Positions 6,323 to 47,440 are shown, counted from the stretch's first letter. The stretch: 54,878 nt of DNA from Myxococcota bacterium (GCA_039030515.1 JBCCEA010000027.1:1-54878), one strand, 5' to 3'. Translations and numbers: made by a program. Notes: generated from the letters alone by a model not told the origin.

Positions 6323-6600
6323 TCAGCCGCGGCGTTTCACTTTGGTGCGAAGTCTGATGTTGCGAAGTCTGATGTAGAGCTCGCCAAGGTTGGGCGCGAC
6401 GCCCCTCCACACGTCTTCGAGTTTGTGCCGCGACGCGTGTAAGACGGATGCCGCAATCTTGGCCTGGTAGTACTCCGTGGTGGTGACAGACCGGTGCCCG
6501 AGCCAGTCGCGAATGCGCGTCATCGAGAGCGGCTTGCCCCGGGTCCCCGTGGCCAGGTGGCTCCCGCAGTGGTTGGCTCGTACATCGGGGTTACTCCTTG
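6323..6600 (-). pseudogene. Tyrosine recombinase C-terminal remnant, copy 1
   Basis: R..H.CGSHL...IRDWLGHRSVTTTEYY catalytic box II; no N-terminal domains. Confidence 0.75.
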
Positions 6601-11976: not shown

Positions 11977-12107
11977 TTGGTGCGAAGTCTGATGTAGAGC
12001 TCGCCAAGGTTGGGCGCGACGCCCCGTCCATACGTCTTCGAGTTTGCGCCCCGACGCGTGTACGACGGATGCCGCAATCTTGGCGTGGTAGTACTCCGTG
12101 GTGGTGG
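11977..12107 (-). pseudogene. Tyrosine recombinase 3'-end remnant, copy 2
   Basis: Closely matches 6342-6485 (TTTEYY.AKIAASV.HAS). Confidence 0.75.
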
Positions 12108-14798: not shown

Positions 14799-14841
14799 TT
14801 CGTAATGAGCAGGTCACCGGTTCGAATCCGGTGGATGGCTC
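14799..14841 (+). repeat. attR-like duplicate of the tRNA-Thr 3' half
   Basis: TTCGTAATGAGCAGGTCACCGGTTCGAATCCGGTGGATGGCTC, one mismatch to the tRNA 3' half. Confidence 0.92.
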
Positions 14842-20712: not shown

Positions 20713-20715
20713 CAG

Positions 20716-21393: not shown

Positions 21394-21394
21394 C

Positions 21395-22078
21395 ATGCGC
21401 TACGAGCTTTTGGACAAACCGGATTTCGGAATGGTGAAGGTGGCTTTTGAAGCGCCGGGCGAGCAGCTCGTTGTCGAGTCGCAAGCGATGGTGGCGCGGG
21501 ACAGCGGAGTAGACATGTCAACGCACATGCGCGGCGGATGGATGGCTGCCGCAAAACGCAAAGTCCTCGGCGGAGAAAGCCTTTTTCAAAATACCTTCAC
21601 CGCAACCGCTCCGGGGCAAGCCCTTTGGTTGGCGCCCAACGCCGAAGGCGACGTGCTCGCGCTCGAGCTCGATGGCGGGTCAGATATCATGCTTCACTCT
21701 GGGGCGTTCTTGGCAGCGTCTCCCAGCGTTTCTCTCGATACCAAGTGGGGCGGTGCAAAAGGGTTCTTCAGCGGCACCGGTTTCTTTCTCTTGAAGTGCA
21801 ATGGGACAGGCTCGCTCTTCTTCAATAGCTGCGGCGGCATTCACCCTGTCGACATCGGTCCCGCCGGATACATTTGCGATACGTCTCACGTCGTCGGTTT
21901 CACCAGCGGTCTCAACTACAACGTAACCAAGGTCGGGGGGCTGAAGTCGCTCTTTCTCGGTGGCGAAGGCCTGGTCTGCCGCTTTCAGGGTCGAGGGCGA
22001 CTCTGGATCTCCACCCGTAACGCGAATGCCCTGGCTTCGTTTGTCCATCCCTTTCGCAAAGTTCGCAACAAGGGCTAA
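21395..22078 (+). CDS. AIM24/TIGR00266 family protein 3
   Basis: ESQAMV, GGESLFQN.F, DTSHVVGF, GGEGLVC.F.G.G. Confidence 0.9.
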   Translation: MRYELLDKPDFGMVKVAFEAPGEQLVVESQAMVARDSGVDMSTHMRGGWMAAAKRKVLGGESLFQNTFTATAPGQALWLAPNAEGDVLALELDGGSDIMLHSGAFLAASPSVSLDTKWGGAKGFFSGTGFFLLKCNGTGSLFFNSCGGIHPVDIGPAGYICDTSHVVGFTSGLNYNVTKVGGLKSLFLGGEGLVCRFQGRGRLWISTRNANALASFVHPFRKVRNKG

Positions 22079-23635: not shown

Positions 23636-24256
23636 ATGGCGAAATTCGACGTGGGCTTCTGGGACGAAAAATTTGAGCCGGATCACTTTGTATACGGCGA
23701 AGAAGCGACCGTATTTCTGCGGGAGCAAGCGCACCACCTGGCCCCCAAGTCGCACATCCTGGTTCCGGCAGACGGCGAGGGACGCAACTCCGTCTTCCTC
23801 GCCAGCCTGGGCCATTCGATCGTCGCAACCGACCGCTCCGATCGCGGTCTTGCCAAGGCGCGCAGACTCGCCGAGTCAAAATCGGTGGAGGTCGACTACC
23901 GCAAACGGGACATCCATAGCTGGGAGTGGCCAAAGGCGGCGTTCGATGCGGTCGTGGCGATCTTCATCCAGTTCTCAGAGCCGAAGATGCGTTCCTACGT
24001 CTTTGACCAGATGCAAAAGGCCGTTCGTCCGGGAGGGCTCGTGTTTCTTCACGGATATACCCAAAAGCAGCTCGAATACGGCACGGGGGGTCCGCCCGTG
24101 CTCGATCACCTCTACACCGAAGAGCTGCTTCAAGCGTCATTTACCGGCTGGCAAATGCTGCGCCTAGAGGCGTATGAGCGCGTCCTAGAAGAAGGCACCG
24201 GTCACGTCGGCCAGTCGGCCCTCATCGATCTCATCGCCCGGCGCCCGGCAGACTGA
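23636..24256 (+). CDS. Class I SAM-dependent methyltransferase
   Basis: FWDEKF...YG, ADGEGRNSVFLA, YGTGGPP, EGTGH.G.SA. Confidence 0.9.
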   Translation: MAKFDVGFWDEKFEPDHFVYGEEATVFLREQAHHLAPKSHILVPADGEGRNSVFLASLGHSIVATDRSDRGLAKARRLAESKSVEVDYRKRDIHSWEWPKAAFDAVVAIFIQFSEPKMRSYVFDQMQKAVRPGGLVFLHGYTQKQLEYGTGGPPVLDHLYTEELLQASFTGWQMLRLEAYERVLEEGTGHVGQSALIDLIARRPAD

Positions 24257-25228
24257 TTCCGGCAGAGCAACTCCGGCAAAATGATTCCGGCAGATCGATC
24301 GTGGCCTGTCTTTTTTGCATCAATACTGCTGGATTATCGATAAAGCATCTCTGGTTCAACCGGAGCGTCGCCGCGGCACCCTCCATCCGCAACGTACGTC
24401 AACGACGGGAGGAGGAGCAGCAGATGCGGTTCTACGTACGGGCGACTGGGTGGGATATGCCGTATTTTGGAACCGAATCTACTTCCGCGAGATTTTCCAA
24501 ATCGTCCGTCCGATTAGATTTTTTAGTTGTTTCACAGATGCGTCATCTTTTACTGATGACCAAAAAAGCTCTGCATCGTAGAAGGCGGCTCGAGGAGTCG
24601 TTCGCACCGGAGTCGTTCGCAACGGAGTCGTTCGCAACGGGCGAGTCATTAGAAACGAGCATGCTGCAACGACCTCCACGGACCTGGTTCCCTGGGCACT
24701 TGACCTTGGCGCCAGCGCCTCTTCTACATGAGGATTGAACTTATTTTGTCCACCAGCCCACCAAGGTTTGGTGTCGAGCGTGGCTTGGACCGCAGAGAGA
24801 ATCACGTAGCTCTCCCCTTGCCGTGTCCGAAGCACCCGCGCTATCGCTTCGCGCGGCCCCATCGCACCCAAAACCCGAGTATTCTCACGCCGTAGAAGGG
24901 CTCGATTTTGCAACGCAAGCGGGGGCGCATTGTGGTGCATCCTTCAACGTCCAATCCGAGAGCCTCATCGAGCGTGCCTGCTTGGCCGCCCTTTCGCACT
25001 CCGATGTGTATTTTTACACACCACTGTTCAGAAGCGATTTCACCCGATAGCACTCCCGTGGTCCCGAGCCTCGAGGTCACCACGCTGGAGTGGAGCCGGC
25101 CCTCATCGATCTCATCGCCCGGCGCCCGGCAGACTGATTCCGGCAGACTGATTCCGGCAGAGCAACTCCGGCAAAGTGATCCCGGCAGAGCGATCGCGGC
25201 CTGCGTCTTTTGCAGCAATACCGCTAGA
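24216..25228 (+). repeat. Direct repeat (24216-24332 and 25097-25228) of the methyltransferase 3' end and downstream spacer
   Basis: CGGCCCTCATCGATCTCATCGCCCGGCGCCCGGCAGACTGATTCCGGCAGA occurs twice, with continuing similarity downstream. Confidence 0.9.
24356..24940 (-). pseudogene. Orphan family B member 1; ORF 24479-24940, frame stays open past an internal TAG to about 24356
   Basis: RENTRVLGAMG...GESYVIL...QNKFNPHVEEALA resembles 32009-32953. Confidence 0.5.
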
Positions 25229-25300
25229 GCGAAACCGGCTCTGCTAGTCGAGAGACGCGCTCAGACGGCCCAGGGCAGCCGTGGTCGACCATGCACTCCT

Positions 25301-26059
25301 TCACGACCACTTGCTGGATAGGCGTTCCCACCACCATGTTTTCGGTAAATCACCGCGATCAACTGCCGCAGGTGCTGGGCCGGGTGCGACAACAGGTGCT
25401 GTAACGAATACGGGGCCGGTTGCAGGTGCAGAACATAAGTCTTCACCGTAGTTAAGCTGAATGCCCATTGAACGGAATTCACCGCAGACTAAGTCTATTG
25501 CTTGTCGCAACACTTCGTCTCTTTGGTCGGGTTTAACATGTGGGCCCGATTCAGCAAACCGCGCTATATAGCTTGTCTTTGAGGGCGCTGTATAGGTTGT
25601 CTTTGAGGAAGGACTTCTGTCGCGGCTTACTTTAATGCTCGCAAGGAGTTTGTATTCGCCGTAACCGGCGTAGCCGTTGTAACCGTCGTATGGCCGCTGG
25701 ATTTCGGGATTAAGGCCGTATTGATTTGGCCTTCCCAAACAGTGTGCCCTGTGGCTAAACACCTCGGGACTAGGATTGAAGACTACGAAATAATGAGCTT
25801 TGCGGGTCGAGCTCTGCACGCCGGATTTTTTTTGAGGACGTTGCGCACCTGACTTTGGCTGAGAGCGCCACACGTCGACCAGTATCATAAGCCAATTGCA
25901 AGCTTCTAAGATCCGCTTGTTCTCACGGTGTAGGTAGGATGGGACTGGAGGTGGGCGTAAGTGACGTGGTGGATGCTTGCGTCGACCTGGTCCCTTGCGT
26001 CGACCTAGAGGTTTTAGTCGAGGCGGAGGCTTGCCTCCACTCTCTGCACCGTGGCCCAT
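25301..26059 (-). CDS. Orphan family B member 2, hypothetical
   Basis: Long lower-GC ORF; RENKRILEA...HYFVVFNP; Pro-rich termini. Confidence 0.6.
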   Translation of the reverse strand: MGHGAESGGKPPPRLKPLGRRKGPGRRKHPPRHLRPPPVPSYLHRENKRILEACNWLMILVDVWRSQPKSGAQRPQKKSGVQSSTRKAHYFVVFNPSPEVFSHRAHCLGRPNQYGLNPEIQRPYDGYNGYAGYGEYKLLASIKVSRDRSPSSKTTYTAPSKTSYIARFAESGPHVKPDQRDEVLRQAIDLVCGEFRSMGIQLNYGEDLCSAPATGPVFVTAPVVAPGPAPAAVDRGDLPKTWWWERLSSKWS

Positions 26060-26297
26060 GGTTTTGTCACCTGTCCGAACACGACCTCGAGCGCTTCTGT
26101 TGGGCGGCTCAGTCTGTTCTGCCTGAAAGTATGATGCAGTACAGTCCGGAAGCGATTTCAGCGGATAACACACCGGTCACCTCGACCTCACGACAGCTCA
26201 GCAGGCTCGGCACTTGGAGCGTGTGGCGCAAAACTCAACTGCGCGAGCCACACTCGACCACTCGACCACTCGACCACGCGAGCCAGGCCCGACTGCG

Positions 26298-27080
26298 CTA
26301 CTTGAACTGGCCCGCGTTGCGGGCGATCTCCAGCTCTATCTCTTCTTCTGAGGCATGCGGTGGCCCAAAAAAAGCCGGGCGGGCGAAGGGAATGCTGAGG
26401 CCCGTCTTGAACGAAGGTCGCTCGTGCAGCATCTCGATCCACGCTCGGAGATGAGGCATCTCTATGAGTTCGACGTTGGCCCAGTAGGCGCTCGCACAGT
26501 AGGCGAAACAAGCCACGTCGACGAGGGTGCAGTTGCGGCCCAAAACGAAAGGCCCCTCGGAGCTGTCGAGCTGCCGATCGAGTACCCCTAGACAGCGTTC
26601 CGCTTCGGCGACAAACCGACCGATCGCAAAGGGATCGTCCTGACCGTGTACCCGGGCAATGCGCTGGAAATACATCGCCTGACCCATCGCGGGGCCGAGG
26701 GCGCTTACCTGCCAGTACAGCCACTGCTTTACCTGGAGGTGCAGCTTCAGATCCTCAGCCGGGCTCGGCAGGAGCGGACTTGCGAATCGCTGCGCCACGT
26801 ACTCGAGAATCGCTCCCGACTCGGCAACCGTCACCCCGGGGCCGCGGTCGATGAGTGCCGGAATCCGCCCATTGGGGTTGATCGCCAAAAACGACTCGCT
26901 TTTCTGCTCGTTCTTTGAAAAATCAACCAGCGCCCAGTCGTAAGGGGCACCGATTTCCTCAAAGAGGATGGGAAGCTTCCAGCCATTTTGTGTGGCGTAC
27001 ACGAGACAACACAGTTCGCTATGCGACCGGTCGGTCCAAACCTGCTCAAAATCCACGCGACGAGCGAGTGTAGATGCCAT
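26298..27080 (-). CDS. Glutathione S-transferase (YghU/YfcG-like)
   Basis: TQNGWK, INPNGRIPAL, ESGAILEY, WLYWQV..LGP.MGQ. Confidence 0.92.
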   Translation of the reverse strand: MASTLARRVDFEQVWTDRSHSELCCLVYATQNGWKLPILFEEIGAPYDWALVDFSKNEQKSESFLAINPNGRIPALIDRGPGVTVAESGAILEYVAQRFASPLLPSPAEDLKLHLQVKQWLYWQVSALGPAMGQAMYFQRIARVHGQDDPFAIGRFVAEAERCLGVLDRQLDSSEGPFVLGRNCTLVDVACFAYCASAYWANVELIEMPHLRAWIEMLHERPSFKTGLSIPFARPAFFGPPHASEEEIELEIARNAGQFK

Positions 27081-27294
27081 CTTCTCCCCCCCCCCAGAGT
27101 CACACCGCGAGTAGACGCGGACTGAATCGATCGGTCGTAGCATACGCTCCGAAGCATCAAGCGGGCAGCGACCGGAAACGTCGCTCCGAGCTGGCGATAC
27201 TGCTGAAAAGATGGCAATTCTGCCGCGCGACACGGTTTGATCCCGCACGTATTAAGGTCCAGGTCCCCGATCGAAAAGCCCAGTCGAAAAAACA

Positions 27295-28260
27295 GTGACT
27301 TCAAAAATATTCGACATCTCGGTCCAGAATCCGGACGATTCGACCCACTTCGGCAATCCAGCTGCATCGAAGACCACTCCCTGTCCCGCGTGCGGTAGCC
27401 GAATCGCGCGCCCGCTCTTCCCGAAAGAGCGCCCTTGGATCCTTCGCTGCGACACCTGCGGGCTAACCCGAGCAGAGCCCCAGCCTTCGGATGATGAGCT
27501 CGAGGCCATCTACGATGAGCACTACTACGAGCAATTTGGCTTCGTCGCTCGAAACCAGGACGATCGGGCGCTGTCGACCACCAAGCGCGCCACCTACGGG
27601 CGCCTGCTGTCACAGCTCCAAACGCATCTGCCCAAGGACGCACAGCAACCCGAAAGCGTGCGTCCTCGTCACCTGCTCGATATCGGATGCGGCCTTGGCT
27701 ATTCTCTGCTGGAAGCTCAATCGCGGGGCTATCAGGCCCTGGGCCTCGACCCGCTCGCGCCCGTCGGAAACCCCAGGTTTGCGGATCGAACGATCCTTCG
27801 AGACACCCTAGAAACCGTCGAGCTGACCCAGCGATTTGACGCAGTGACCGCGATCGACGTCATCGAACACGTGCGAGACCCCATTCAAACGGTACGTGCC
27901 GCTGCGCGACTGTTGCGATCGGACGGGGTGCTCATGCTCGCCACCAACGACGTCAGCAGCTTGGGCGCGCGACTGCTCGGCCCGCGCTGGACGCATTTTC
28001 ACCGGGCCCACCTCTGGTTCTTCACCCCAGAAACACTGAGCAAAATCGTCAGCCTGGCGGGCCTCGAAGTGATCGCAACCGAACCCGTGTGGCGGGTCTA
28101 CAATTTTGAATACATCGCGTCGATCCTCGCTCGTGGCGACAACTTCCGCCTCGCTATGCGATGTGCTCAGGCAGGTCTGAAGCGGGTTCCCAAAGCCCTG
28201 CAGCGCCTACCCTGGCCCGCGGTTCCGGAAGGCTTCGTGCTCTTCGCCCGCACGCCATGA
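27295..28260 (+). CDS. Class I SAM methyltransferase with N-terminal Zn ribbon (surface-glycan associated type)
   Basis: CPAC...CDTC, LLDIGCGLG, DVIEHV.DP, HLWFF. Confidence 0.88.
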   Translation: MTSKIFDISVQNPDDSTHFGNPAASKTTPCPACGSRIARPLFPKERPWILRCDTCGLTRAEPQPSDDELEAIYDEHYYEQFGFVARNQDDRALSTTKRATYGRLLSQLQTHLPKDAQQPESVRPRHLLDIGCGLGYSLLEAQSRGYQALGLDPLAPVGNPRFADRTILRDTLETVELTQRFDAVTAIDVIEHVRDPIQTVRAAARLLRSDGVLMLATNDVSSLGARLLGPRWTHFHRAHLWFFTPETLSKIVSLAGLEVIATEPVWRVYNFEYIASILARGDNFRLAMRCAQAGLKRVPKALQRLPWPAVPEGFVLFARTP

Positions 28261-30032
28261 CGCAACGCACCTTCACTCCGGCCAGCGCCAAACCGATGAA
28301 GCAGCAACCGAAAGCGCAATCTCAAAAGTCCGGTTCGACAAAGCTTCCGAGGGGATGGATTCTTCTCTGCGGTCTCGGATCCCTCGTATTTTGGGCGCCG
28401 TGGTTCGCGACCAGCGATCTGACCGGTTTCGGAGACTGGCAGTGGTTTCATCGGCAGTGGGAACTCGGGCGAATCGCCTATCTGAAGTTTGGCGAACTTC
28501 CTCTTTGGGATTCAAGTCAGTGCGGAGGCTCTTCCCTTTGGGCGCAACCCCAGAGTCAGGTGTTCTCGCCGCTCTACCTTCTTTTGGCACTCCCGCTCGG
28601 AACCGTAACCGGCTCAAAATTGTGGGCGGTGGTTCATAGCTTCGCAGCAGCGGTCGGCATGGTGTTGCTCGCGCATCGGGAATACCGATTGCATCCCGCC
28701 GGAACCCTGATCGCGACCGTAGTATTCGCCTTTAGCGGATTTTTTGCCTGGCATGGCACCGGTGGACACGCGACCTACTTCGCCTTCTACTACTTGCCCT
28801 GGCTGGTGCTCGGGCATCGACGTTCGATGTACGATCGACGCTACTGCGCTTTGGTCGCAGGCGTCCTCGGCATGGCGCTGCTCGAGGGCGCGCACTATCC
28901 CGTCCCCTACTTCGTCTTGGTGCTCGCGTCTGAGGGGGTTCGTGCACTCATCGTGCATCGCTCCAAGCTCGCCACCGTCTTCAAAGCGGAACTCGTCAGC
29001 GGCGTCTTGACACTCATGCTCGGCGCGTTCCGCCTCGTCCCCATCGCAGCCGCCGTCGTGGACAATCCAAAAGAGGTTCCTTCGCTGGACTCCCTGAACC
29101 TCAGCGAGGCACTTTTGATGTTCACCGCCCGAAGTCATCAATGGCACCTGCCCGGCCACGTCTGGGTTTGGGCGGAATACGGAACCTATATAGGCTGGGC
29201 CGCGCTTGCGCTGGGAGGCGCAGGCCTCATCCACAGCCTGGGGAGACGTCGAGATCTGGTCGCCGGATTCTTGATCGCATTCGCCATCATGCTTGGGGAC
29301 CTGGGTCCCTACTCGCCCTGGTCGCTGATGCACAACCTACCCTTCTATGAGCGACTCCATCTCCCGTCGCGCTTCGCCGTATTCGTGAGCTTTTATCTCG
29401 CACTTGCCGCCGGTGCTGCACTCGACGCCCTAAGCCACTTGAGCCTAAGGCAGCACCAGACCCATCGCGCCATGCGGTACGCCCTCTGGACGATCGCGCT
29501 TGGAATCACCGTCGATATATTCTCCGTCAATGTAAAAACCAATAACCGCTGGAACCACCCTCCTCTGCATGAAGACATGCCGGACGGTCGCTACCACCTG
29601 ATACCTGGCGAACACTTTCATCGGGTTTTCGCCAGCTACCCGAGGCGCAATGTGGGCGTCACGGAGTGCTACGATGCGACAAACTGGAGCGTCGCTGAAG
29701 ATCTCTGGGTCGGCGACACGGCCCAGGCCAAGGTAATTCGGGGCGGCGGCAAAGTTCATGATTGGAACCGAAGCAACACCCGTGCGTTCGCTGAGGTAAC
29801 GCTCAAAGCGCCCGGCGTCGTCGCCTTCAATCAGAACTACGCCCGGGGCTGGACAAGCAATATCGGCGCCGCATTCGACTACAAGGGGCTGATGTCGGTG
29901 CGCGATGTTCCGGCGGGCACGCAGAGGATCGAACTGGAGTTTAAGCCGCCGGAGTTTTACCCCCTGCTGATGCTGCTGCTCCTCGGCAGCGCCCTGTGCC
30001 TACGGATTGCAGCAACACCTCATCCCTGGTGA
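28257..30032 (+). CDS. Polytopic membrane protein, GT-C/YfhO-like glycosyltransferase
   Basis: GELPLWD...GG, many TM helices, P.RF motif, NQNYARGW C-terminal domain. Confidence 0.72.
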   Translation: MTQRTFTPASAKPMKQQPKAQSQKSGSTKLPRGWILLCGLGSLVFWAPWFATSDLTGFGDWQWFHRQWELGRIAYLKFGELPLWDSSQCGGSSLWAQPQSQVFSPLYLLLALPLGTVTGSKLWAVVHSFAAAVGMVLLAHREYRLHPAGTLIATVVFAFSGFFAWHGTGGHATYFAFYYLPWLVLGHRRSMYDRRYCALVAGVLGMALLEGAHYPVPYFVLVLASEGVRALIVHRSKLATVFKAELVSGVLTLMLGAFRLVPIAAAVVDNPKEVPSLDSLNLSEALLMFTARSHQWHLPGHVWVWAEYGTYIGWAALALGGAGLIHSLGRRRDLVAGFLIAFAIMLGDLGPYSPWSLMHNLPFYERLHLPSRFAVFVSFYLALAAGAALDALSHLSLRQHQTHRAMRYALWTIALGITVDIFSVNVKTNNRWNHPPLHEDMPDGRYHLIPGEHFHRVFASYPRRNVGVTECYDATNWSVAEDLWVGDTAQAKVIRGGGKVHDWNRSNTRAFAEVTLKAPGVVAFNQNYARGWTSNIGAAFDYKGLMSVRDVPAGTQRIELEFKPPEFYPLLMLLLLGSALCLRIAATPHPW

Positions 30033-30118
30033 GCGCTTCTGGTGAGCGCCTTTGCCGACCATCACAGATGAGCCTCTGTTCACGCGCACGCACAGCGCGA
30101 CCGCGATTCGCGCAAAGA

Positions 30119-39655: not shown

Positions 39656-40542
39656 CGTTCCATCATGGAACGCCGCAAAATCTACGCAGTGCAGCGTAAG
39701 CGATTCACGAACTCTCCCTGCTCCCTGCGCCGTCGCTCAGACGTCATCGGCGACTGGTGAAATCTACGCATCAGCCGGGAGTGTCTTATCGGACCGAAGC
39801 GATTCGACGAGCTGCAGGGGTTTCTAGGAGTGGGGCGAAACATCCCTCTTCGCCGTGATGCCGGCGCGATTCCTAGGGAAGCGGCCGCACGTATCCCAGT
39901 CCCGCAAAAACCCCGGGGGATGCCGACGTAGAGGGAGCCACAAGCGGGACCACTCCGCTCAGCACGCGAGCCCACGGCCGCGCTTCATGACCGCTGGCCA
40001 CGCGGGGCGAGGTCCACACCTTGAGTTCCGATAGGGTGAGCCCAATACCCAGCGCCACCAAAGCGGGAATCTGCTGATCAAAAAAGAGCGAGCGCGTCCC
40101 GGCGATCATCGTATTCAGAAATATCAGGCCGGCGTGAGCAAACCAGTTGCGCGCTTTGCGTTCAGATCGGGCATAGCGCCGCAGGAGCGCACGCTTGGCG
40201 GCAACACAATCGGCGGGACCACTCCAAGAGCGCTTCCCCAGCGATCTTCGTGATCCTGCGGCAGCACGAGTTGCACCCCGCTACCGATGCTTTCTCCGGC
40301 TAGAGTCACGGCCCAGGCGCGGCGCCATCTTTGTGCCGCCTCTTGGGCCTCTCTGAGAATGCCGTCGGGCTTTTCTTCCTCAGAGGTTCGCAAGTCTTCT
40401 TCTGCGCTCAAAACTACGCCGCAGGAGTGGGCTCGTGCCGAACTCGGTGCGACAAAGGCCGCGGCCAAAGGCGCAGAAACGAAGATACATCTAAGGCAAG
40501 CCGGAAAGTCCCGATGGCCCCATTCAACCTGACCGGGTACGG
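39656..40542. pseudogene. Degenerate copy of operator, HxlR fragment, gene X and the MBL upstream motif
   Basis: Long near-identity to 37807-37997 and 33890-34755; jumps at about 40520 to sequence matching 36770-36791. Confidence 0.9.
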
Positions 40543-40890
40543 TGCGCCTGACCGGGTATGGTTGGCCTAACCGGCTGCGACGCCAGATCAGATACGGTTG
40601 GGCTGTGCGCGCGATCGGCTGCGGTGCGCCTGACCGGGTACGGTTGGCTTGACCAGGTACGGTTGACCAGCTGACCGGGTGCGGTGCGCCTGACCGGCTC
40701 ATTCAACCTGACCAGGTACGGTGCGCGCCTGACCGGGTACGGTGCGCCTGACCGGCTGCGGTGCGCCTGACCAGGTACGGTTGACCAGCTGACCGGGTGC
40801 GGTGCGCCTGACCGGCTCATTCAACCTGACCAGGTACGGTGCGCGCCTGACCGGGTACGGTTGGCTTGACCGGGCACGGTTGGCCAGACT
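40521..40890. repeat. Minisatellite of ~19-bp units (CTGACC(G/A)GGTACGGTGCGC-like)
   Basis: Many imperfect tandem units with a higher-order block repeated 118 bp apart. Confidence 0.9.
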
Positions 40891-41096
40891 CAGATGGTCC
40901 ACCGCCCAATGGTGCATCAGGATGGGCGGAGTTCTTTGGTGATCTCGCCGGCCGTGTTTTTCTCGCTGGAAACAACCTTCGGCGCAGCTACCCAGAGGCT
41001 CTCGGTGCTCAGGCGATAGGAGCCGGACGCACCGGAAGGGGCGCTTGAAACGGTCGGTTCTGGAGGTGGTCTTTGGTTAGGGCGCGAGTATGATGG

Positions 41097-41489
41097 TTAG
41101 GGCGCGAGTATGATCACCTTCAACTGACTAGGGGTGGACCGGGTACCGACGCAGTTGCCCTTGTTTTGAGAGGACATGCTGCTCATTCGACTCACCGGCA
41201 TACCTCCGACCAGCACGGTCATCGCACCGGTAAGGTGCTTGGAGGAGCCCATCACCGAGCCAGAAACAGCGCCGCCCTGAACTCCCGCGTTGTCGCCGAC
41301 GGTCATCGGTACCGAGGAGCCGAGATTGTGCGTCGGCGCGCCCGCCATCAACACGTGGAACACCGCTCCGGATGCCGTCATTCCGTGGGCTGTGTTGGGA
41401 TAAGGCACGGGAGTGGGCGTCGGCGACGGGGTCATACACACGTCAGGGAACGCCAGATCCATGCCTGCTGCCTGGGTATTCGCAAACAT
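41097..41489 (-). CDS. PAAR-like DUF4150 protein
   Basis: MFANTQ..GMDLAFPDVC.TP...PVPYPN...GDNAG...PSQ.KV. Confidence 0.9.
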   Translation of the reverse strand: MFANTQAAGMDLAFPDVCMTPSPTPTPVPYPNTAHGMTASGAVFHVLMAGAPTHNLGSSVPMTVGDNAGVQGGAVSGSVMGSSKHLTGAMTVLVGGMPVSRMSSMSSQNKGNCVGTRSTPSQLKVIILAP

Positions 41490-42343
41490 CAACCGACCTG
41501 TACCTGTGCACCGTCGACATGCACCAAGTTCCTTGCGGTCACGCTCGTCATCTCAGCGTCGAGTCGGGCGGTCTGCTGCGCGCGGAACTCGAGCGCCCCC
41601 GCACGCAGCGTTTCCTTGCCTACTACGGTGCGGAATACCGACTCCGCCGTCTGCACCACCTGCCTCGATACCGCTTCCACCAGGTCGCCGATCAAATGCA
41701 CAAACCGTGCACGCAACTCAAGACGTTCACTGCAGACTCGCGTAACCTCGCTGCGGAACTCTGCCTTGTGACCGTCGAACGAGAGGTCCTGTGCCGCAAG
41801 CTGAAGCGTCGAGCTGACGACCTGAAGCGGACGTGAGGAGGTACCGAAAACCATTTCCGCATCCGCACCCACCTGCACTTGCGGCGCTGAGGTTGCAATT
41901 ACCGCGATGATCACGATGCGGTCGTCCACCGTAACGCACAAAACCTCATCACCAGAAACCGGCTCAACCAAACAACTGACAGCACGCGTAGCCCCGCCAA
42001 CCACCTCACCGTCACGTTCGACGAGGTATCCGGCATCGGACCGGCGCAACACGCGCCCTATCCTAAGAACATTTTGCATTGCGACTGCAGTACTTACCTC
42101 GGCGGGGCTCATCCCTGTAGTACCCATCCCGGCGGGGCCCATCCCTGCAGTGCTTACCTCGGCGGTGCCCATCCCTGCGGTGCTCCCCCTGGCAGCATTC
42201 ATCCTCGCAATAGATGACCCTGATGCGGGCAGCTGGGCGGTGGGTGACCCGACTGATTGTGGTCCCAGGATCACCTTAGAGGGATGGTGTACGTTGTGTT
42301 GAACAGTCATGTGCATGATTGACTCTCCTCTTTTTTGGCGCAC
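41489..42343 (-). CDS. DUF3540 protein (T6SS-associated); N-terminal extension uncertain
   Basis: RAVSCLVEP..GD.V and terminal VHVDGAQVQVG. Confidence 0.85.
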   Translation of the reverse strand: MRQKRGESIMHMTVQHNVHHPSKVILGPQSVGSPTAQLPASGSSIARMNAARGSTAGMGTAEVSTAGMGPAGMGTTGMSPAEVSTAVAMQNVLRIGRVLRRSDAGYLVERDGEVVGGATRAVSCLVEPVSGDEVLCVTVDDRIVIIAVIATSAPQVQVGADAEMVFGTSSRPLQVVSSTLQLAAQDLSFDGHKAEFRSEVTRVCSERLELRARFVHLIGDLVEAVSRQVVQTAESVFRTVVGKETLRAGALEFRAQQTARLDAEMTSVTARNLVHVDGAQVQVG

Positions 42344-42494
42344 GAGAAGCTGAAGGGTGCATCCAAACCTTCGTACAGTTCGCGGCGGGTGCGATCACCG
42401 CAAGGTCGACTGAAACTGGGTGCTCTGCTCCATAAACCGACTCTGCTCTGGGTACATTATTTATTGAAGTGCGCGTGTCCCAAACCATATGTCT

Positions 42495-43604
42495 CTAAGC
42501 AGCATCACCGGGAGGACGATAGAGCTCCGCGCGCAAAAGCTCTTGATCCGTTGGAATCGCTCCCTCAGGCAACTGTGCAAGCCCACGGACCGCATGACAG
42601 CGCGTCCGATAGGTGCTGGCGCCGGAAAGGTTCAGGTTCCCCGTCATCTCGCACCAGGACAGGTCCGCATAGTCGAGTATCGAGTTCTGCATCGGAACGT
42701 CGTGCAGCTTTGCGCCCTGCAATACCGACTCCTTGAAAGATGCTTCTCTTAGAACCGCTCCGGTGAAATCAACTCCCGCCAAGTTGCTGCGGTTAAAAAG
42801 AGCCGACTCGGCTATGACTTGACGTAGGTTCGACTCAGGAAAGCTCGAGTAGCAAACGCTAGCCTCGGTGAACAACGCTGTAGACAGGTCACAATCTTTG
42901 AAGCCCGATCCGTCGAGAACGCTCTTGGTGAAATCACAACCGGCCAGCACCGAGCGCTGCCATTGACAGCCACGCAAAGTCTGGCCGGCAAAAGAAACAC
43001 CGGCCACGTTTACTTTGTTGAGCACGCATGAATCCATCGCTACTTGTTGCAGCTGAGCGCTTCTTAGATCGGCCTCGAGAAACGTAACCCGCTCGAAACA
43101 GCTGCCGGTAAACGTGGCGTCGCTTAGGGTGCATCCGGAGAATGTCACCATGTTCAAATCCGCCTGAGGCGATCGGAGGCCGCTGAGGTCTGTCTTGTCA
43201 AAGAATACCGAGTGCATCACTACCTCGTCTGACTCGGTACCGATCATCGTCCCACCGAGAAACTGAGACTCACTAAGATGCACTGAAGACAAGAACAGTT
43301 CCGTAAAATGGCAACGGATTGCGACAAGGTCTTTGATCGCAGACTTCAAAAAATTCACGGAACGAAAAGAGCAGTCGATACATATCACGTCGTCAAAACG
43401 AACTCGATGCATCGAACAGCCTACAAAGTGAACATCTTGCAGGGTCACTCCGTTCAGCTCCAGTTCATCCAGACACTGACCCTCGACCGTAGCGCAACGC
43501 AGTTCTCCCTCACGTTCGACCCGTTCTCTGAACTCGGCCCCGCTGAGAAAGGGGCGGGGCGCATCCGATGAGTCTTTGTGTGGAAATGGGAAATCTTGCA
43601 TCAC
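42495..43604 (-). CDS. Pentapeptide repeat protein (T6SS-associated)
   Basis: Continuous A(D/N)L/F-type pentapeptides; coupled to the DUF2169 gene. Confidence 0.9.
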   Translation of the reverse strand: MMQDFPFPHKDSSDAPRPFLSGAEFRERVEREGELRCATVEGQCLDELELNGVTLQDVHFVGCSMHRVRFDDVICIDCSFRSVNFLKSAIKDLVAIRCHFTELFLSSVHLSESQFLGGTMIGTESDEVVMHSVFFDKTDLSGLRSPQADLNMVTFSGCTLSDATFTGSCFERVTFLEADLRSAQLQQVAMDSCVLNKVNVAGVSFAGQTLRGCQWQRSVLAGCDFTKSVLDGSGFKDCDLSTALFTEASVCYSSFPESNLRQVIAESALFNRSNLAGVDFTGAVLREASFKESVLQGAKLHDVPMQNSILDYADLSWCEMTGNLNLSGASTYRTRCHAVRGLAQLPEGAIPTDQELLRAELYRPPGDAA

Positions 43605-46198
43605 AACTCTTCCGATACCTTCCTGAGAGGGAGCACCTGAACTCGCGACTGATCTGCTTCTTGAAACGCGGTGAGCTCGTCGGACCAGACTTCGGAGAAA
43701 TCAGCGCCAAACAAACTGGCATGGCCGAAACTGGCTGCTCGAAGATCCGCTTTTGCGAAACTCGCCTCGAAGAGATCTGCATGAAGAAACCTCGCGCTCG
43801 TGCACCGTGCGCGTCGGAACCGAGCTCTTCTGGCGACGACCCTCGAGAGGTCGGTCTCGCTCAGGTTCGCAAGGCTCAGGTCTGCATCGTTCATTTTTGC
43901 ACCTTCAAGACAAGAACGACGTAGGTCAACGCCTCTAAAAAGTGCCTTTTCTAAAAAAGCCTGACGAAAGATGGAATCGGAAAGATCTGTTTCTTCCCCC
44001 ACAAACCGCACCCCAGCCGCGGCTGCTTCGAAACAGTCGATCCCTTTTGCCTGACACTGAATGAACGAGGTGCTCTCTAGGCACGCACCTCGAAAGGATG
44101 CGTTTTTTATCACGCAAGAAATAAAGATCGCCTTTTGCAGTTTCGTGTTGTCGAAGCAAATCTCCGCGAGTTCATGACGGTGCCAGCATGACTCCTCGAG
44201 TTCTGCATTCGAAAAGTCAGTTTTATTCAAAATGGCTTCCGTAAACTCCACATCTTTCAAGACACACCCAGAAAGACAGGCACCTTGAAGGTCTGCCCCG
44301 CAAAAAATCGTCCCTTTGCACTCTGAAGAACTAAAGTTGGATCGATGAAGACGTGCTTTGCCGAAATTGGCACCTTCTAAGCAACAACCCTGAAATGAGG
44401 CATCCTCACAGTTCGCATGCGAGAAGACGGCAAAGGATAGATCCGACCCGTCGAAGCGCGCGCCTCTCAGGTCTACCCCGTGAAAGTCGGCAAATTTTAG
44501 ATCCTTGTTGCGATAGTCTACAGCCGTCGAGCGGGATGGTTCGCCCGCAGTTTCTTGGATAGGTCGCGGCAATTGATAATGCGCCATCGACACCTGACTC
44601 CGACGAGAGGACTCTTCAAAGCTCGACTGAGTGGATGCAGAGAAGCCTAAATCTTCAGGCACGGAACGAGAGGGGGCCAATCCTTGCCAGTAGATTTCTG
44701 TCTCCGAGATCCCCGCTTCTTTCAGCTTGGAGCGGATCTTCTGCTCGAGATTCTCAACGGGGCTCTCTCCCTCTTGATCTCCACTCGACTTAATCTTCTG
44801 CAGAATTTCCTTGAGGCTGTATCCTTTGATCGGAACCGCGGGACTTGAGGCAGATGCATTACTCGATGAACTTTGCGGCTCCCCCTCGATGCTGGGCGAT
44901 GTTTCCCCATCGCGCATCGGAGCCGAGGCCGGGCCTTTTTGCACTGAAGATTCGGTGGAGTCCGCTCCTGCAGCCGAGTCCGCTCCTGCAGCCGAGTCCG
45001 CTCCTGCGGCGGCGGCAACTGAAGCAGGGTTCTGCCCCAGACGGGAGGTCGCTTCATCGATACGCTTCATCGCTCGCTGCAGACGCGGGCTCAAGGGGAT
45101 TAGTGTTTCTTCACTCGAGTTGCTCGAAGAGTCGTCTTTGCGTGCTGGCTGCAACCACGCGGGATCGAGCGTCGCCTCGACTCTGCCCTCAGCCGTTTGG
45201 TAGTGCTGCATGGCCCAGCGGTAGTACGCATCATCTTTTGGTTCTGCGGGATCCTCCAGACCGACAAGCACACAGCCCACATCAAATCCATCGTCGTGCT
45301 GGGAGGGTATTTGGCCGTGAAAGATCAGAATCATTTGCTCCACATCGGGCATGAGCCACAGGGTGCGCAGCTTCATCTCCAAACGCTCTGAGGCCTCCAC
45401 CTTCATATCGGTGCGTTGAACGAATCCACGGCATGTCAAAGAAGGAAGCTCGGCCGTGAGAACCGACTTGGTCGGGTGGAGGTGCTCCATGCGAACGACT
45501 TCAAGCCGGCTCCACTCGGAGCGGCTCCATTGATCGCTCGGCGCCATCTGAAAGAAACGAGGGTCGACATCTCGCGGCATTCCCGGAAACTCCGACTCTA
45601 CCCAATGCGCGTCGTACGTTCCCGCTCGATCCCGGCGCACCTGCCAGTCGGGCCGCATCGGACCAAAGCCCGCAGCCACCCGGCGCGTTAGAGACGCCTC
45701 GTCCCAGGTGAGCGAGGCATCGGGTGGGTATTCAATATTGGGCAGGTAGCCGGGCTCGGTGGAAATCGTAAAGCCTCGCCCATCGGGATTTCCCGGGTGT
45801 CCCGGACCACCAAAGGCACGGGACCATTCGAGGGGCATTCGTTCAAACGCCTCTGGGGGCGAAAGGTCCCGCCCTGACCAGTATCGGTCACCCGTCACCT
45901 GAAGCTTCTTATCGACCTCTCCAAAAACAACTCGGGGGTAGCAGCGCGCTACGTCTGGACCTCCAGAATAGGCTGCCCCCGCCAAGAGAAACTCCGGGTG
46001 CGCCTTTGGAAGAAGTTCGTCCAGCGCTCCAAATGCCGGGGCGATTCGTTCACCGTAGCGTTTGTACAGCTCTTGCTCGGAGCTCAAGACTCGATCGAAA
46101 CCGACCATCACTGCAGCGCCGATGCAAAGATAGTGGGATCCACCAAGCGTGACGGATCGGCTGAGCACCGAGACAGTGGTGGGTTTGATCACACGCAT
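43601..46198 (-). CDS. DUF2169 T6SS adaptor fused to pentapeptide repeats
   Basis: V.GDR.W, MPL.WSRAFGG, NP.GRG, LPNIE, GFGP...W..R...AGTYD..W, FFQMAP.DQ; C-terminal pentapeptides. Confidence 0.92.
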   Translation of the reverse strand: MRVIKPTTVSVLSRSVTLGGSHYLCIGAAVMVGFDRVLSSEQELYKRYGERIAPAFGALDELLPKAHPEFLLAGAAYSGGPDVARCYPRVVFGEVDKKLQVTGDRYWSGRDLSPPEAFERMPLEWSRAFGGPGHPGNPDGRGFTISTEPGYLPNIEYPPDASLTWDEASLTRRVAAGFGPMRPDWQVRRDRAGTYDAHWVESEFPGMPRDVDPRFFQMAPSDQWSRSEWSRLEVVRMEHLHPTKSVLTAELPSLTCRGFVQRTDMKVEASERLEMKLRTLWLMPDVEQMILIFHGQIPSQHDDGFDVGCVLVGLEDPAEPKDDAYYRWAMQHYQTAEGRVEATLDPAWLQPARKDDSSSNSSEETLIPLSPRLQRAMKRIDEATSRLGQNPASVAAAAGADSAAGADSAAGADSTESSVQKGPASAPMRDGETSPSIEGEPQSSSSNASASSPAVPIKGYSLKEILQKIKSSGDQEGESPVENLEQKIRSKLKEAGISETEIYWQGLAPSRSVPEDLGFSASTQSSFEESSRRSQVSMAHYQLPRPIQETAGEPSRSTAVDYRNKDLKFADFHGVDLRGARFDGSDLSFAVFSHANCEDASFQGCCLEGANFGKARLHRSNFSSSECKGTIFCGADLQGACLSGCVLKDVEFTEAILNKTDFSNAELEESCWHRHELAEICFDNTKLQKAIFISCVIKNASFRGACLESTSFIQCQAKGIDCFEAAAAGVRFVGEETDLSDSIFRQAFLEKALFRGVDLRRSCLEGAKMNDADLSLANLSETDLSRVVARRARFRRARCTSARFLHADLFEASFAKADLRAASFGHASLFGADFSEVWSDELTAFQEADQSRVQVLPLRKVSEEL

Positions 46199-46331
46199 CG
46201 CAAAAAGAGTGTCCGCCGATGTGACCGAAGTTCGATCCAAGACCGAAGTTCGATTCAATCAAAGCAGCTACAACCTTCTACGCGCGGGATCGAAGAATCT
46301 CTCCCTGGTGGGGTGAATCAAATCTCGCGAA

Positions 46332-47393
46332 TCAAAAATTTCCGCTGAGCACCAGGCGATCGGATGCCAGCGACATACTCAAGCTGGCTTCTCGGCCCTC
46401 GGTTTGGCGCACCGGAATCGATAGGAGGAGCACGGAGGAAGCGATCCCGGCAAGACCAGCGACCGTATAACCCCAGGAGATGCCTCGTTGCCCCCGATCA
46501 AACTGCTCGCATGTGCCGTCCGGCGCGCGAGATGAACACGAATTGGAACGAACAAGACCGACCATGCCGACTGAGAACAGTGCCGAAGCGCCTGCGGCGA
46601 CAACTCCGGCGGTGACGATTCGGGCCAGCGGCAGCCGGCGGGTCTTGCTGCGATCGGTCGATCCAGAGGGCGTGCCCGACCCCTGCACGTCGCTCTCGGA
46701 AGCATCCCGCTCGAGATTGACGGCCATCTCAAACACCCCACCTGCTGCGGAGCCCACCTCGAATTCTCGGACTTCCTCGCCAGCGCTTTCATGACGCACT
46801 ACCAGGGTATGTATGCCCGGGGTCACCAGGGTGTCGATCGGGGTGGTGCCGACAAAGCGCTCGTCGATGATGACCGCTGCTCCCGGCGGCTGAGAACTCA
46901 CGCGCACCACTTTCTCACCTTCGTTCTCCGCGTCTCTGAGCGCCTCTTGTAGAAGCTCTGGCAGAACCGCGGAGAGCAGGAGATTTTCTGAAGATCGGTC
47001 GGCTCGCCCGATCCCATCCTCGGAAACCACGATGAGCTCGATCGAAGCAGGTCGCCCTCCCGAGAGGAAGGATGAGACCAGGAGCACCCCTTCGAGCCCA
47101 AGCTGAGCGCGCTGCTCACTCCAGCAGGGAGTGGTATCGCATCCGCCAAGACCCGCCGCCGCTCGACGATGTTGAATCACGTCGGCAGAGATCACGTCAT
47201 GCCCTGATTGGACCAGCGCCTCGGTCAGGGCCGACTGAATGTGCGAGGACAGCTCCTTATCAAACCGGGCGTCTCCTGCAGGGGACGCGATACCCCAGGG
47301 TTCTGCCGCTGCGGAGTTCGGCACCGACTGCAACCCCATAAATAAACAGCTGCTGACGATGAGTGCATTTCGAGTCACAAACGCTCCTATCAC
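46332..47393 (-). CDS. Exported PEGA-domain protein
   Basis: VSSQPPGAAVIID...GTTP.....PGIH; signal peptide; C-terminal hydrophobic segments. Confidence 0.8.
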   Translation of the reverse strand: MIGAFVTRNALIVSSCLFMGLQSVPNSAAAEPWGIASPAGDARFDKELSSHIQSALTEALVQSGHDVISADVIQHRRAAAGLGGCDTTPCWSEQRAQLGLEGVLLVSSFLSGGRPASIELIVVSEDGIGRADRSSENLLLSAVLPELLQEALRDAENEGEKVVRVSSQPPGAAVIIDERFVGTTPIDTLVTPGIHTLVVRHESAGEEVREFEVGSAAGGVFEMAVNLERDASESDVQGSGTPSGSTDRSKTRRLPLARIVTAGVVAAGASALFSVGMVGLVRSNSCSSRAPDGTCEQFDRGQRGISWGYTVAGLAGIASSVLLLSIPVRQTEGREASLSMSLASDRLVLSGNF

Positions 47394-47440
47394 AAACGAT
47401 CAGAGTTCTTCTTCAACAAACGCGGAGACAGAACCGCTGA

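Follow-up and report, generated by a model that had tools for sequence, protein, structure and literature searches.

An ordinary strain-variable mosaic islet with ORFans beside a Tvp/Paar1-type gene set in a Myxococcota bacterium

In the toxin/immunity arrays found at rhs, cdiA and vgrG loci, the DNA that is conserved comes from the end of the effector's own constant region and lets recombination re-arm the main gene, and an immunity gene accompanies every toxin piece. Genomic islets linked to tRNA genes, and the tandem accretion of islands, offer another comparison, as do integrons and CALINs, the latter being attC clusters without an integrase; their cassette arrays carry attC-type imperfect palindromes. 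The class III Tvp system of Serratia marcescens Db10 operates with a stand-alone Paar1; the available part of its description names no effector gene adjoining paar1 (PMC13373197, EMBO J 2026).

The window described here is the whole stretch of DNA analysed, 54,878 nucleotides from a marine Myxococcota bacterium whose genome is a MAG of 75 contigs and 85% completeness. An earlier note on this DNA proposed local tandem duplication with strong diversifying selection or cassette replacement acting on effector-like genes downstream of a T6SS spike module, and put forward delivery by T6SS as a hypothesis from position only. The locus is an ordinary strain-variable mosaic islet with ORFans, where recently duplicated fragments of resident genes alternate with much older or mutually unrelated orphans, and it was probably built by recombination rather than by rapid divergence.

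The Tvp/Paar1 gene set and its neighbours

Four minus-strand genes encode a TvpAB-type DUF2169 and pentapeptide-repeat protein (43601..46258; DUF2169 8.2e-63 over residues 73-314, Pentapeptide 4.1e-43), a TvpB-type pentapeptide-repeat protein (42495..43604; Pentapeptide_4 1.4e-30), a TvpC-type DUF3540 protein (41489..42343; DUF3540 1.3e-33) and a stand-alone PAAR-like protein of 131 aa (DUF4150, Paar1-type; 41097..41492; Tox-PAAR-like 1.5e-33, covering 10-116). The defining features of class III Tvp sets are thus present, namely a DUF2169 plus pentapeptide TvpAB, a separate TvpB, a DUF3540 TvpC and a stand-alone DUF4150 PAAR, and judged by domain architecture the T6SS spike module of the earlier note is an intact class III accessory set (TvpAB/TvpB/TvpC/Paar1). 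The set does not lie downstream of a cognate vgrG: this contig carries no vgrG and no Phage_GPD match, the two Phage_GPD matches in the genome being on contigs C47 and C1, the only long VgrG (1030 aa) on C47 and TssC on C32. Upstream of the set are a Ser/Thr kinase gene (Pkinase) and two PEGA-domain genes, not vgrG. The neighbouring TvpAB/TvpB/TvpC/Paar1 would serve the long VgrG from another contig. Only one of 87 family relatives has a TvpC-like protein, and the match is weak (E 1.3e-4).

The six orphan ORFs are all on the minus strand, as the earlier note stated, sharing the strand of the Tvp/Paar1 genes and positioned downstream of them. Together with the near-identical repeats that flank the orphans, this arrangement favours the effector model, although the orphans are tied to the Tvp/Paar1 set by position alone. 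The orphans show no sequence similarity to Paar1 or to any of the Tvp genes. The stretch in between holds a tRNA gene, a regulator on the plus strand, a pseudogene and a dispersed repeat, and two of the orphans (W1 and W2) lie 15-17 kb from the set with unrelated genes between. The Z and W ORFs are solitary, each being followed by a tRNA or hxlR fragment or by the gene for MBL or MCP; no toxin domain, immunity-like partner or chaperone/adaptor family (DUF1795, DUF4123) was found among the scanned ORFs. It also argues against the model that class III Tvp sets, on the available part of the Serratia account, use a stand-alone Paar1 (PMC13373197). The reading of the orphans as effector-like and T6SS-delivered accordingly has nothing beyond position behind it.

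The 118-nt repeat 3' of the PAAR gene, previously taken for a repeat protein, has matches on 20 of the 75 contigs and is dispersed and non-coding. A tandem array of ~19-nt units (40521..40889) also belongs to a genome-dispersed repeat family, and the ORFs called there are spurious.

Duplicated resident-gene pieces and the orphans between them

The SAM-dependent methyltransferase gene (23636..24256, plus strand; Pfam Methyltransf_25 3.1e-13, TPMT 4.5e-10) is a resident gene whose 3' end is present twice, in agreement with the earlier note. Copy 1 (24216..24333) consists of the ORF's last 41 nt, four 14-nt units (CCGGCAGAnnnAnT) and a T-rich tail; copy 2 (25097..25228) also holds the final 41 nt and has one extra 14-nt unit. 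The copies are 100% identical over 51 nt (24216-24266 and 25097-25147) and 90% identical between 24245-24326 and 25140-25221.

The second duplication, described earlier as three copies of a tRNA-Gly/hxlR/gene X/MBL unit, involves a tRNA-Gly/hxlR-derived segment that is indeed present three times (units A, B and C), with tRNA-Gly, hxlR and Y pieces 88-95% identical in DNA. The intact tRNA-Gly(CCC) gene (37647..37721, minus), which is the sole one in the assembly, and the intact hxlR-family regulator (37752..38360, plus; HxlR 9.2e-17) make up unit B. In unit A, the 3' 31 nt of the tRNA (33866..33896, minus), a dead fragment 100% identical to 37647-37677, are joined via GGCGACT microhomology to hxlR nt 148-244 (33890..33986, plus), a 97-nt fragment with a stop inside and 95% identity to 37899-37995. 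Unit C has no tRNA piece whatever and an hxlR fragment of 190 nt (39656..39845, plus; 88% to 37807-37995). Gene Y is common to units A and C (33987-34753 and 39846-40520, 92-95%). Y_A (34014..34835, minus; duplicated part 33987-34753), probably the gene X of the earlier note, is an intact secreted/membrane protein gene with one outside homolog (P0004, 46% identity) and an Atlas feature score of 0.96 to unnamed clusters in which Myxococcota is the commonest recorded phylum; Y_C (39876..40520, minus) is a pseudogene copy with a 91-nt frameshifting deletion. The MBL-fold lipoprotein gene (34795..36717, minus; 640 aa; Lactamase_B 3.5e-14) does not share in the duplication: no second copy or remnant was found, the best non-self tblastn match (E 0.055) being at an unrelated site.

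Each resident gene retains just one intact copy. Degeneration is seen as the GGCGACT microhomology deletion in unit A, the 91-nt deletion in Y_C and a frameshift in one orphan (ZA), and the fragmentary tRNA and hxlR copies with the Y_C deletion bear out the earlier observation that the passengers decay by deletion yet stay near-identical. Identity falls abruptly in two places, the 3' end of the tRNA and a breakpoint within hxlR; similarity between units A and B stops exactly at the former, and the repeat pairs have unequal identities (88%, 93% and 95%).

Three orphans accompany these units. ZA (33012..33831, minus) is Cys/His-rich with a C-terminal hydrophobic segment, is broken by a frameshift/insertion and has the first Cys of its CPIC motif changed to Y. 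ZB (36840..37589, minus; 249 aa) is intact, with CPIC...HLVCMNC...CPTC Cys/His motifs and C-terminal hydrophobic segments, and ZC (38632..39462, minus; 276 aa) has Cys motifs, a strong C-terminal TM and an AAGGAG Shine-Dalgarno motif. All three start with ATG, and an AGGAG-type Shine-Dalgarno motif precedes ZA and ZC, a purine-rich leader ZB, which speaks for their being real genes. The earlier note had called the orphans recognisable only by protein motifs, and such a relationship holds for two pairs. ZA and ZB are demonstrable paralogs with strong support from their protein comparison (Smith-Waterman z 18 in the C part and 9 in the N part, a score reached by 0 of 500 shuffles), the similarity being confined to the ORF frame (133 versus at most 68). 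W1 (24479..24940, minus; 153 aa) and W3 (32009..32953, minus; 314 aa) are paralogs with moderate support by the same kind of evidence (34% identity over 68 aa, E 4e-5; z 6.3, 0 of 500 shuffles; frame-specific score 70 versus at most 47 in other frame pairs). For ZC, homology to ZA and ZB is not demonstrable in these alignments (ZB/ZC z 2.4, score reached by 16 of 500 shuffles; no ZA/ZC similarity by Smith-Waterman) and it is a positional analogue only. W2 (25301..26173, minus; 290 aa) is likewise a positional analogue of W1: the W1/W2 score of 52 (z 4.5) is beaten by the best off-frame pair at 56, and the same comparison gave no W2/W3 similarity. W2 also has a GC3 of 0.47 and poor coding statistics, and no outside homolog was found for it. 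Since ZC and W2 are without demonstrable homology and W2 is statistically poor as coding sequence, some of the orphan ORFs, W2 in particular, may not be genes.

None of the six orphans, W1 included, has a family match in Pfam, NCBIfam, PHROGs or PADLOC, and no homolog of any was found in 40 relatives, among 1.84 billion representatives (a search in which ZB too found none) or in a word search of 5.8 billion clusters. Their GC3 is 0.47-0.62 versus 0.58-0.74 for family-matched genes, and GC over ZC is 0.49-0.54, values that give the cargo a foreign look. The Cys/His spacing of ZA and ZB (C-x2-C ... H-x2-C-x2-C ... C-x2-C) resembles that of RING and Prok-RING zinc fingers, and the best leads for both in Pfam and the Atlas all point to RING-type families, but every match is below its curated threshold (ZB: Prok-RING_4 19.2 bits, cut-off 27, and RING_XB3 14.5, cut-off 50; ZA: zf-C3HC4_3 10.9, cut-off 27). 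None of ZA, ZB and ZC reaches the RING finger or Prok-RING_4 cut-off, and ZC has no RING-type Pfam match. The full set of eight RING-like ligands is not evident in ZA and ZB, RING clusters give an Atlas feature score of 0.89, which is no more than a lead, and an AlphaFold2 model addressing a RING-like fold was of low confidence (mean pLDDT 43.7). The prediction for the Z proteins is that they are Cys/His-rich membrane proteins, tail-anchored and facing the cytoplasm, and RING-like at a sub-threshold level. We do not think that they are T6SS cargo, and regard their genes rather as strain-specific accessory genes.

Age of the orphans and origin of the mosaic

The comparison of flanks with ORFs proposed in the earlier note gives 50% nucleotide identity for ZA/ZB (48% for shuffles) versus 88-95% for the flanks. 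ZA and ZB have a third-position identity of 0.33, use the same codon at 19 of 53 identical residues and have a saturated NG86 dS of 2.77 in the C part and 1.04 in the N part; for W1/W3 the same codon occurs at 3 of 22 and dS is saturated and not computable. Y_A and Y_C differ at 36 of 642 nt (8, 12 and 16 at the first, second and third codon positions; dN 0.044, dS 0.10). Over 97 nt the three hxlR fragments show star-like divergence, with 2, 3 and 4 changes private to one fragment each. With saturated dS in ZA/ZB versus about 0.10 in the flanks, the orphans are estimated to be at least ten-fold older than the duplications, and on this evidence they predate them and did not diverge quickly afterwards. 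Selection does not speed up synonymous sites, and their saturation therefore refutes diversifying selection on recent duplicates; of the two causes that had been offered, cassette replacement or juxtaposition survives.

Because the orphans are far older than the flanking duplications, the patchwork likely came from strain-to-strain recombination. The DNA would come from co-occurring related strains with the same resident genes and a different orphan, and would be added by crossing-over within shared resident sequence, either through one cross-over with a circularised fragment or through unequal exchange, each of which yields repeat-cargo-repeat. Microhomology-mediated deletions would afterwards have stripped the redundant resident copies. 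Related strains do co-occur: contigs with 90-99% identity to the window occur in runs X2-X4, and an X4 contig from a diverged strain joins 24280 to 25177 and lacks the W1 unit. No circular intermediate, needed by the single-cross-over model, was observed, nor was any donor allele recovered together with its flanks, so that we only infer the recombination route.

Flanks that have undergone gene conversion could look young without being so. A tandem array of Z (and W) paralogs that is itself ancient, with resident pieces kept alike by concerted evolution, would explain old cassettes beside similar flanks without outside DNA, and the unequal repeat identities are as expected from separate conversion events. 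We nevertheless consider it unlikely, as conversion from unit B over the A-specific deletion junction, or over the hxlR|Y junction common to A and C, should have refilled the lost sequence; moreover, the hxlR fragments are star-like rather than donor-recipient patches, dead fragments of 31 and 97 nt are poor conversion substrates, and the X4 contig without W1 points to recent gain or loss.

That the assembly strung together the variants that different strains have at a single hypervariable locus, or an excised circle of 3.8-5.9 kb, is an improbable reading, although this is a fragmented, incomplete MAG with related strains in the same samples. The earlier note had allowed for such artefacts, and the check went largely against them. 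Contigs of run X1 cover all unique segments at a depth of 19-22.6, the same as the core, where alternative alleles would divide core depth, and most unique/repeat junctions are bridged, with S1|tRNA', R1|MBL, ZB|tRNA, tRNA|hxlR, hxlR|ZC and ZC|hxlR' each under a 100%-identical contig. Uniform depth and bridged junctions in these short contigs support the assembly. The Logan contigs (k=31) stop at every repeat, and the 31-nt tRNA and 865-nt Y repeats are beyond their phasing; reads are able to phase the repeats, which are 5-12% divergent and also differ in indels. One X3 contig joins ZB to an A-type junction (37646->33866), which would allow a different order or a 3.8-kb circle, but the joint may be a graph artefact, since exactly 31 nt are shared, which we take to be the word size of the Logan graph.

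Serial site-specific integration of small islands into the tRNA-Gly 3' end, one Z gene apiece, is about as doubtful. It would fit the direct repetition of the tRNA 3' 31 nt 3.8 kb away, the exact stop of A/B similarity at the tRNA 3' end and, on the same contig, a tRNA-Thr whose 3' end recurs as a 43-nt direct repeat at a distance of 8.5 kb. No integrase family was found among the ORFs scanned across the window, however, unit A arose from a B-like copy by deletion at a microhomology, unit C is without any tRNA piece, and the repeats take in Y and hxlR on the 5' side of the tRNA, which attachment-site duplication would not do.

Tandem duplication in place followed by diversifying selection on T6SS-delivered effectors is very unlikely given the dS contrast and the lack of a detectable relationship of ZC and W2 to the other orphans, even though ZA is more diverged between strains (88% in an X2 contig over 33455-33867, 48/412 differing) than MBL (97-99% in X2 and X4 contigs; 8/826, 7/419 and 22/819) in this one comparison.

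Comparison with known systems

The orphan arrays at rhs, cdiA and vgrG loci resemble the locus, on the available part of the Salmonella orphan Rhs account, in that co-oriented cassettes, either strongly diverged or not related at all, follow a secretion-related gene and have short, near-identical, recombination-capable DNA between them (PMC3967940). The conserved DNA here, in contrast, consists of scraps of unrelated housekeeping genes, namely tRNA, hxlR, Y and methyltransferase genes, and there is no main effector gene, toxin domain or immunity partner. Assignment to a T6SS orphan effector/immunity array was rejected on the lack of a toxin domain, a shared delivery region and a trailing immunity gene.

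Integron and CALIN arrays likewise have co-oriented ORFan genes between repeated elements of ~100 nt, but the repeats here are gene fragments and 14-nt direct repeats instead of attC-type imperfect palindromes, and there is no IntI; this class was rejected on the type of inter-cassette repeat and the absence of an integrase. The locus shares with tRNA-linked islets strain-variable, ORFan-rich DNA of atypical composition at a tRNA with a 3'-end direct repeat, but differs in lacking an integrase, in repeats that pass to the other side of the tRNA and in one unit without a tRNA. A tRNA-integrated genomic island was also rejected, with no integrase family in the window and repeats holding hxlR and Y.

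Compared with the class III Tvp locus of Serratia marcescens Db10, as far as the available part of that source describes it, there is no preceding vgrG or vai1-like gene, and kinase and PEGA genes stand there instead; the same four domain architectures are present in the same order, as four intact ORFs (PMC13373197).

Duplicated segments and their decay

The window, a complete contig of 54.9 kb (C27), belongs to a metagenome-assembled genome (4.08 Mb in 75 contigs, 85% complete) whose family-level relatives are too distant to provide a synteny reference, and DNA near-identical to it is present in four marine-metagenome runs, all of one study. Domains encoded in the window include FHA, PP2C, Ser/Thr kinase and PEGA. 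Six orphan ORFs lie on the minus strand between duplicated pieces of other genes. Two of these are associated with a methyltransferase gene (23636-24256, plus strand), the end of which is duplicated together with the 14-nt repeats downstream (24216-24333 and 25097-25228), with orphan W1 (24479-24940) following the first copy and W2 (25301-26173) the second. The 14-nt tandem units, CCGGCAGAnnnAnT (24245-24300 and 25126-25195), begin within the methyltransferase stop-codon region and are unequal in number between the two copies; a diverged strain in run X4, one of the metagenome runs with matching contigs, has one extra unit. The third orphan, W3 (32009-32953), lies next to a PAS-MCP gene, to the left of which are genes for a membrane protein, two methyltransferases and a GST. 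The chemoreceptor gene has an internal duplication of 341 nt (80.6%, 31170-31876) corresponding to its two PAS domains, and three consecutive AIM24-family genes (263, 225 and 242 aa, plus strand) are found at 19921-22078.

The remaining orphans are each associated with a segment derived from a tRNA-Gly and an hxlR gene. Unit A comprises the frameshifted orphan ZA (33012-33831), a tRNA 3' fragment (33866-33896), an hxlR fragment (33890-33986) and an intact copy of the secreted-protein gene Y (Y_A, 34014-34835, minus), followed by an MBL-fold lipoprotein gene (34795-36717, minus). Unit B consists of orphan ZB (36840-37589), the sole tRNA-Gly(CCC) copy in the assembly (37647-37721, minus) and an intact hxlR (37752-38360, plus), and unit C of orphan ZC (38632-39462), an hxlR fragment (39656-39845) and a minus-strand Y pseudogene (Y_C). 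Comparison of the units bears out the description in the earlier note in part. The local duplications are real, with repeats far beyond chance: A and C share 471 nt at 95% identity and a further 313 nt at 92%, B and C share 191 nt (88%), and A and B share 97 nt (95%) and a 31-nt tRNA end (100%). Decay of the duplicated pieces by deletion is visible at base level: in unit A a shared GGCGACT fuses the tRNA 3' end to hxlR at about codon 50, and Y_C is short of 91 nt relative to Y_A. One hxlR-Y breakpoint is common to units A and C and absent from B. Exactly one working copy each of tRNA-Gly, hxlR, Y and the MBL gene is left.

The MBL gene had been counted as part of a triplicated unit, but it is a single-copy gene with no remnants, and Y is the gene duplicated with hxlR. 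Y encodes a real protein, with an outside homolog (P0004) 46% identical and many Myxococcota look-alikes; the Atlas clusters nearest to it have Myxococcota as their commonest recorded phylum, and a metagenome scan for P0004 found no match. A 64-nt stretch at 38542-38605 may be a further remnant of Y (69%, E about 5e-4), but protein comparison lends it no support. Among 30 relatives, five have hxlR paralogs, 33-41% identical, and no closer match was found. Promoter and terminator scans of 32-41.6 kb gave counts at or below shuffle expectation.

Other repeats are present on the contig. Tandem units of about 19 nt (CCTGACCGGGTACGGTGCG-like) form a 369-nt array at 40521-40889, recur at 36757-36802 and occur on 20 of the 75 contigs (C47, C53, C56, C33, C28 and C19 among them), often at contig ends, and therefore probably break the assembly. 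This family is a dispersed non-coding repeat, and the long Pro/Arg-rich ORFs over its arrays are spurious. A second tRNA-linked mosaic involves a tRNA-Thr(CGT) gene (6214-6287) with an incomplete 5' copy at 6037-6075 and, at 14799-14841, a direct repeat of 43 nt from its 3' end. The 8.5-kb interval contains a 129-nt repeat (94.6%, 6358-6485 and 11978-12106), an AbiEi/AbiEii pair, a sigma-70 region 4 protein and a TetR regulator, and no recognisable integrase.

Age and nature of the orphan ORFs

Kinship among the orphans can be demonstrated for two pairs, ZA/ZB (z 18 and 9, with a frame-specific score of 133 against no more than 68) and W1/W3 (z 6.3, with a score of 70 against no more than 47), but W1/W2, ZB/ZC, ZA/ZC and W2/W3 could not be distinguished from background. 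An architecture of ATG start, Cys/His motifs and C-terminal hydrophobic segment is nevertheless common to ZA, ZB and ZC, all three of which are preceded by Shine-Dalgarno-like or purine-rich leaders. An HMM of ZA and ZB and another of the W ORFs, run against the genome's 35,506 six-frame ORFs, matched nothing further, and ZC was not recovered.

Had the orphans been duplicated jointly with their flanks and only afterwards separated by selection, divergence at their synonymous sites would be expected to match that of the flanks, which is not the case for ZA/ZB or W1/W3. Y_A and Y_C differ by a dN of 0.044 and a dS of 0.10, with 16 of 214 third positions changed, and over 97 nt the three hxlR fragments carry 2, 3 and 4 private changes, in a star-like pattern. 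For ZA and ZB, dS is 2.77 in the C part and 1.04 in the N part, third-position identity is 0.33, the same codon is used in 19 of 53 identical residues and overall nucleotide identity is 50%, compared with 48% for shuffles. Synonymous sites are saturated in W1 and W3 too (same codon in 3 of 22). The Z and W paralogs are thus at least ten times older than the surrounding duplications: the cassettes are old and their flanks young. The earlier idea of fast divergence after duplication is contradicted by this result, which favours the cassette juxtaposition offered alongside it. The abrupt drops in identity at the tRNA 3' end and within hxlR mark sites of recombination or insertion rather than the limits of a mutational hot zone, and none of the window ORFs that were scanned matched a reverse transcriptase or other mutator family. 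Greater divergence in a coding sequence than in the dead DNA next to it can therefore mislead, and the synonymous-site test separates fast evolution from juxtaposition of old cassettes.

Searches for what the orphans encode returned little beyond the window. Among 1.84 billion representatives, ZB matched only itself and a spurious repeat protein (P0002), and searches with the Z and W alignments returned only the window's own proteins. No significant ZB match was found in 40 relatives, the single hit (E 0.006) containing stops. Family libraries gave no above-threshold match for any orphan, and PHROGs and PADLOC were likewise empty. ZB and ZA gave only sub-threshold RING-type leads, Prok-RING_4 (E 1.1e-3) and an Atlas score of 0.89 in a search whose ten best hits are all RING clusters. 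An AlphaFold2 model of ZB from a 3-row alignment has a mean pLDDT of 43.7 and gives no confident fold. GC3 of the orphans (0.47-0.62) is mostly under that of family-matched neighbour genes (0.58-0.74). The Z proteins are best read as strain-specific accessory membrane proteins, likely tail-anchored, facing the cytoplasm and binding zinc, and they constitute a database-unique family, likely of membrane-anchored zinc fingers, in an uncultured marine bacterium. The bacterium is likely a myxobacterium, to which both the domain content of the window and the Atlas neighbours of Y point. It is possible that W2 is not a gene.

Strain variation and assembly of the array

Addition of related-strain DNA by cross-over is expected to leave a repeat-cargo-repeat layout like this one, in which the flanks differ by about 5-12% and the cargo is old or unrelated. 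The incoming DNA would have carried the same resident genes with a different orphan, and a cross-over within the shared sequence, either a single one of a circularised fragment or an unequal exchange, would have produced the layout, after which microhomology deletions would strip the spare resident copies. With moderate confidence, we infer that some explanation of this family, juxtaposition of old cassettes by cross-over from related strains and then deletion, accounts for the array. Homogenisation of the flanks by gene conversion is an unlikely alternative source of their similarity.

Misassembly is improbable. Contigs of run X1, which were built independently, cover each unique segment with 100% identity and at near-equal depth (22.6, 19, 21, 21, 21, 22.3 and 19.5); competing strain alleles would split the depth between them. 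These contigs bridge ZA to the tRNA fragment, Y_A to the MBL gene and through ZB to the tRNA, the tRNA to hxlR, and hxlR through ZC to the next hxlR fragment, but they break inside the repeats, so array order is unreadable from them. A single X3 contig joins ZB to an A-type junction (37646 to 33866) with an overlap of exactly 31 nt, presumably the word size of the contig graph. This repeat-length overlap makes the joint ambiguous: it may be an artefact of the graph, or it may point to a circle, tandem copy or other array order. As a circle or tandem-copy junction, it would close a 3.78-kb segment containing Y_A, the MBL gene and ZB (33866-37646), with the 31-nt tRNA repeats at its edges. An X4 joint (33969 to 37979) is ambiguous since the hxlR pieces are paralogous. 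The locus is probably not an assembly artefact.

Diverged strains co-occur in the samples (contigs 90-99% identical). In X4, one contig passes from the methyltransferase directly to 25177, skipping the 896-nt W1 unit, with a right side only 83% identical. An X2 contig over the 5' half of ZA is 88% identical (48 of 412 differences), compared with 97-99% for MBL contigs of other strains. Single contigs in each case, these indicate that the orphan units are the variable part of the locus between strains; uncovered parts over ZA, ZC, W2 and part of W3 in the diverged X3 and X4 strains were not counted as absence. Serial insertion of tRNA-targeted islands is as improbable as misassembly, as no integrase family matched the ORFs scanned in the window and the repeats reach across the tRNA.

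T6SS accessory genes beside the array

Four minus-strand genes match the class III Tvp accessory system: a TvpAB-like DUF2169 and pentapeptide protein (43601-46258), a pentapeptide protein (42495-43604), a DUF3540 protein (41489-42343) and a stand-alone DUF4150 PAAR-like protein (41097-41492). In the portion of the published account drawn on here, TvpAB, TvpB and TvpC load stand-alone Paar1 onto a long VgrG, and in the Serratia model the immunity gene adjoins vgrG1, with no separate effector identified (PMC13373197). The set (41097-46258) is intact, detached from any vgrG and directly behind two PEGA-domain genes and one Ser/Thr kinase gene (46332-51561). Elsewhere in the genome are TssC on contig C32 and a 1030-aa VgrG on C47; the latter (C47 7777-10869) is the genome's only long VgrG, an orphan, followed by unknown ORFs of 445 and 259 aa. 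TvpC gave one weak hit among 87 relatives, and four short matches in Actinomycetota records in a contig scan (20-80 residues) were judged spurious.

The suggestion that the orphans are T6SS effectors is left with position as their sole link to these genes: family scans found no toxin domain, immunity partner or chaperone, the contig has no vgrG, and W1 and W2 are 15-17 kb from the Tvp/Paar1 genes with unrelated genes between. A very improbable reading is that ZA, ZB and ZC are alternative alleles, separated long ago, of one RING-like membrane protein that is tail-anchored and specific to the lineage, and that balancing selection maintains them in a marine myxobacterial population as a reshufflable multi-allele cassette array beside Tvp/Paar1, exchanged between strains via the shared housekeeping flanks. 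If true, this would be a new kind of polymorphic locus for self/non-self or host interaction, and it might add a new class of cargo for stand-alone Paar1 spikes. Should the Z cassettes prove to segregate as ancient alleles, the locus would be tractable as a model of balancing selection acting on ORFans. Diversification in situ followed by T6SS delivery, the model of the earlier note, is scarcely credible given the saturated synonymous sites of ZA/ZB and W1/W3.

Under the preferred juxtaposition by cross-over and deletion, the locus illustrates in a small natural setting how repeats and cargo accrete in alternation and how redundant gene copies are then lost in a complementary way, and it also contains an orphan class III Tvp gene set without a linked vgrG. 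It is a strain-variable mosaic islet with ORFans, and such islets are a known kind.
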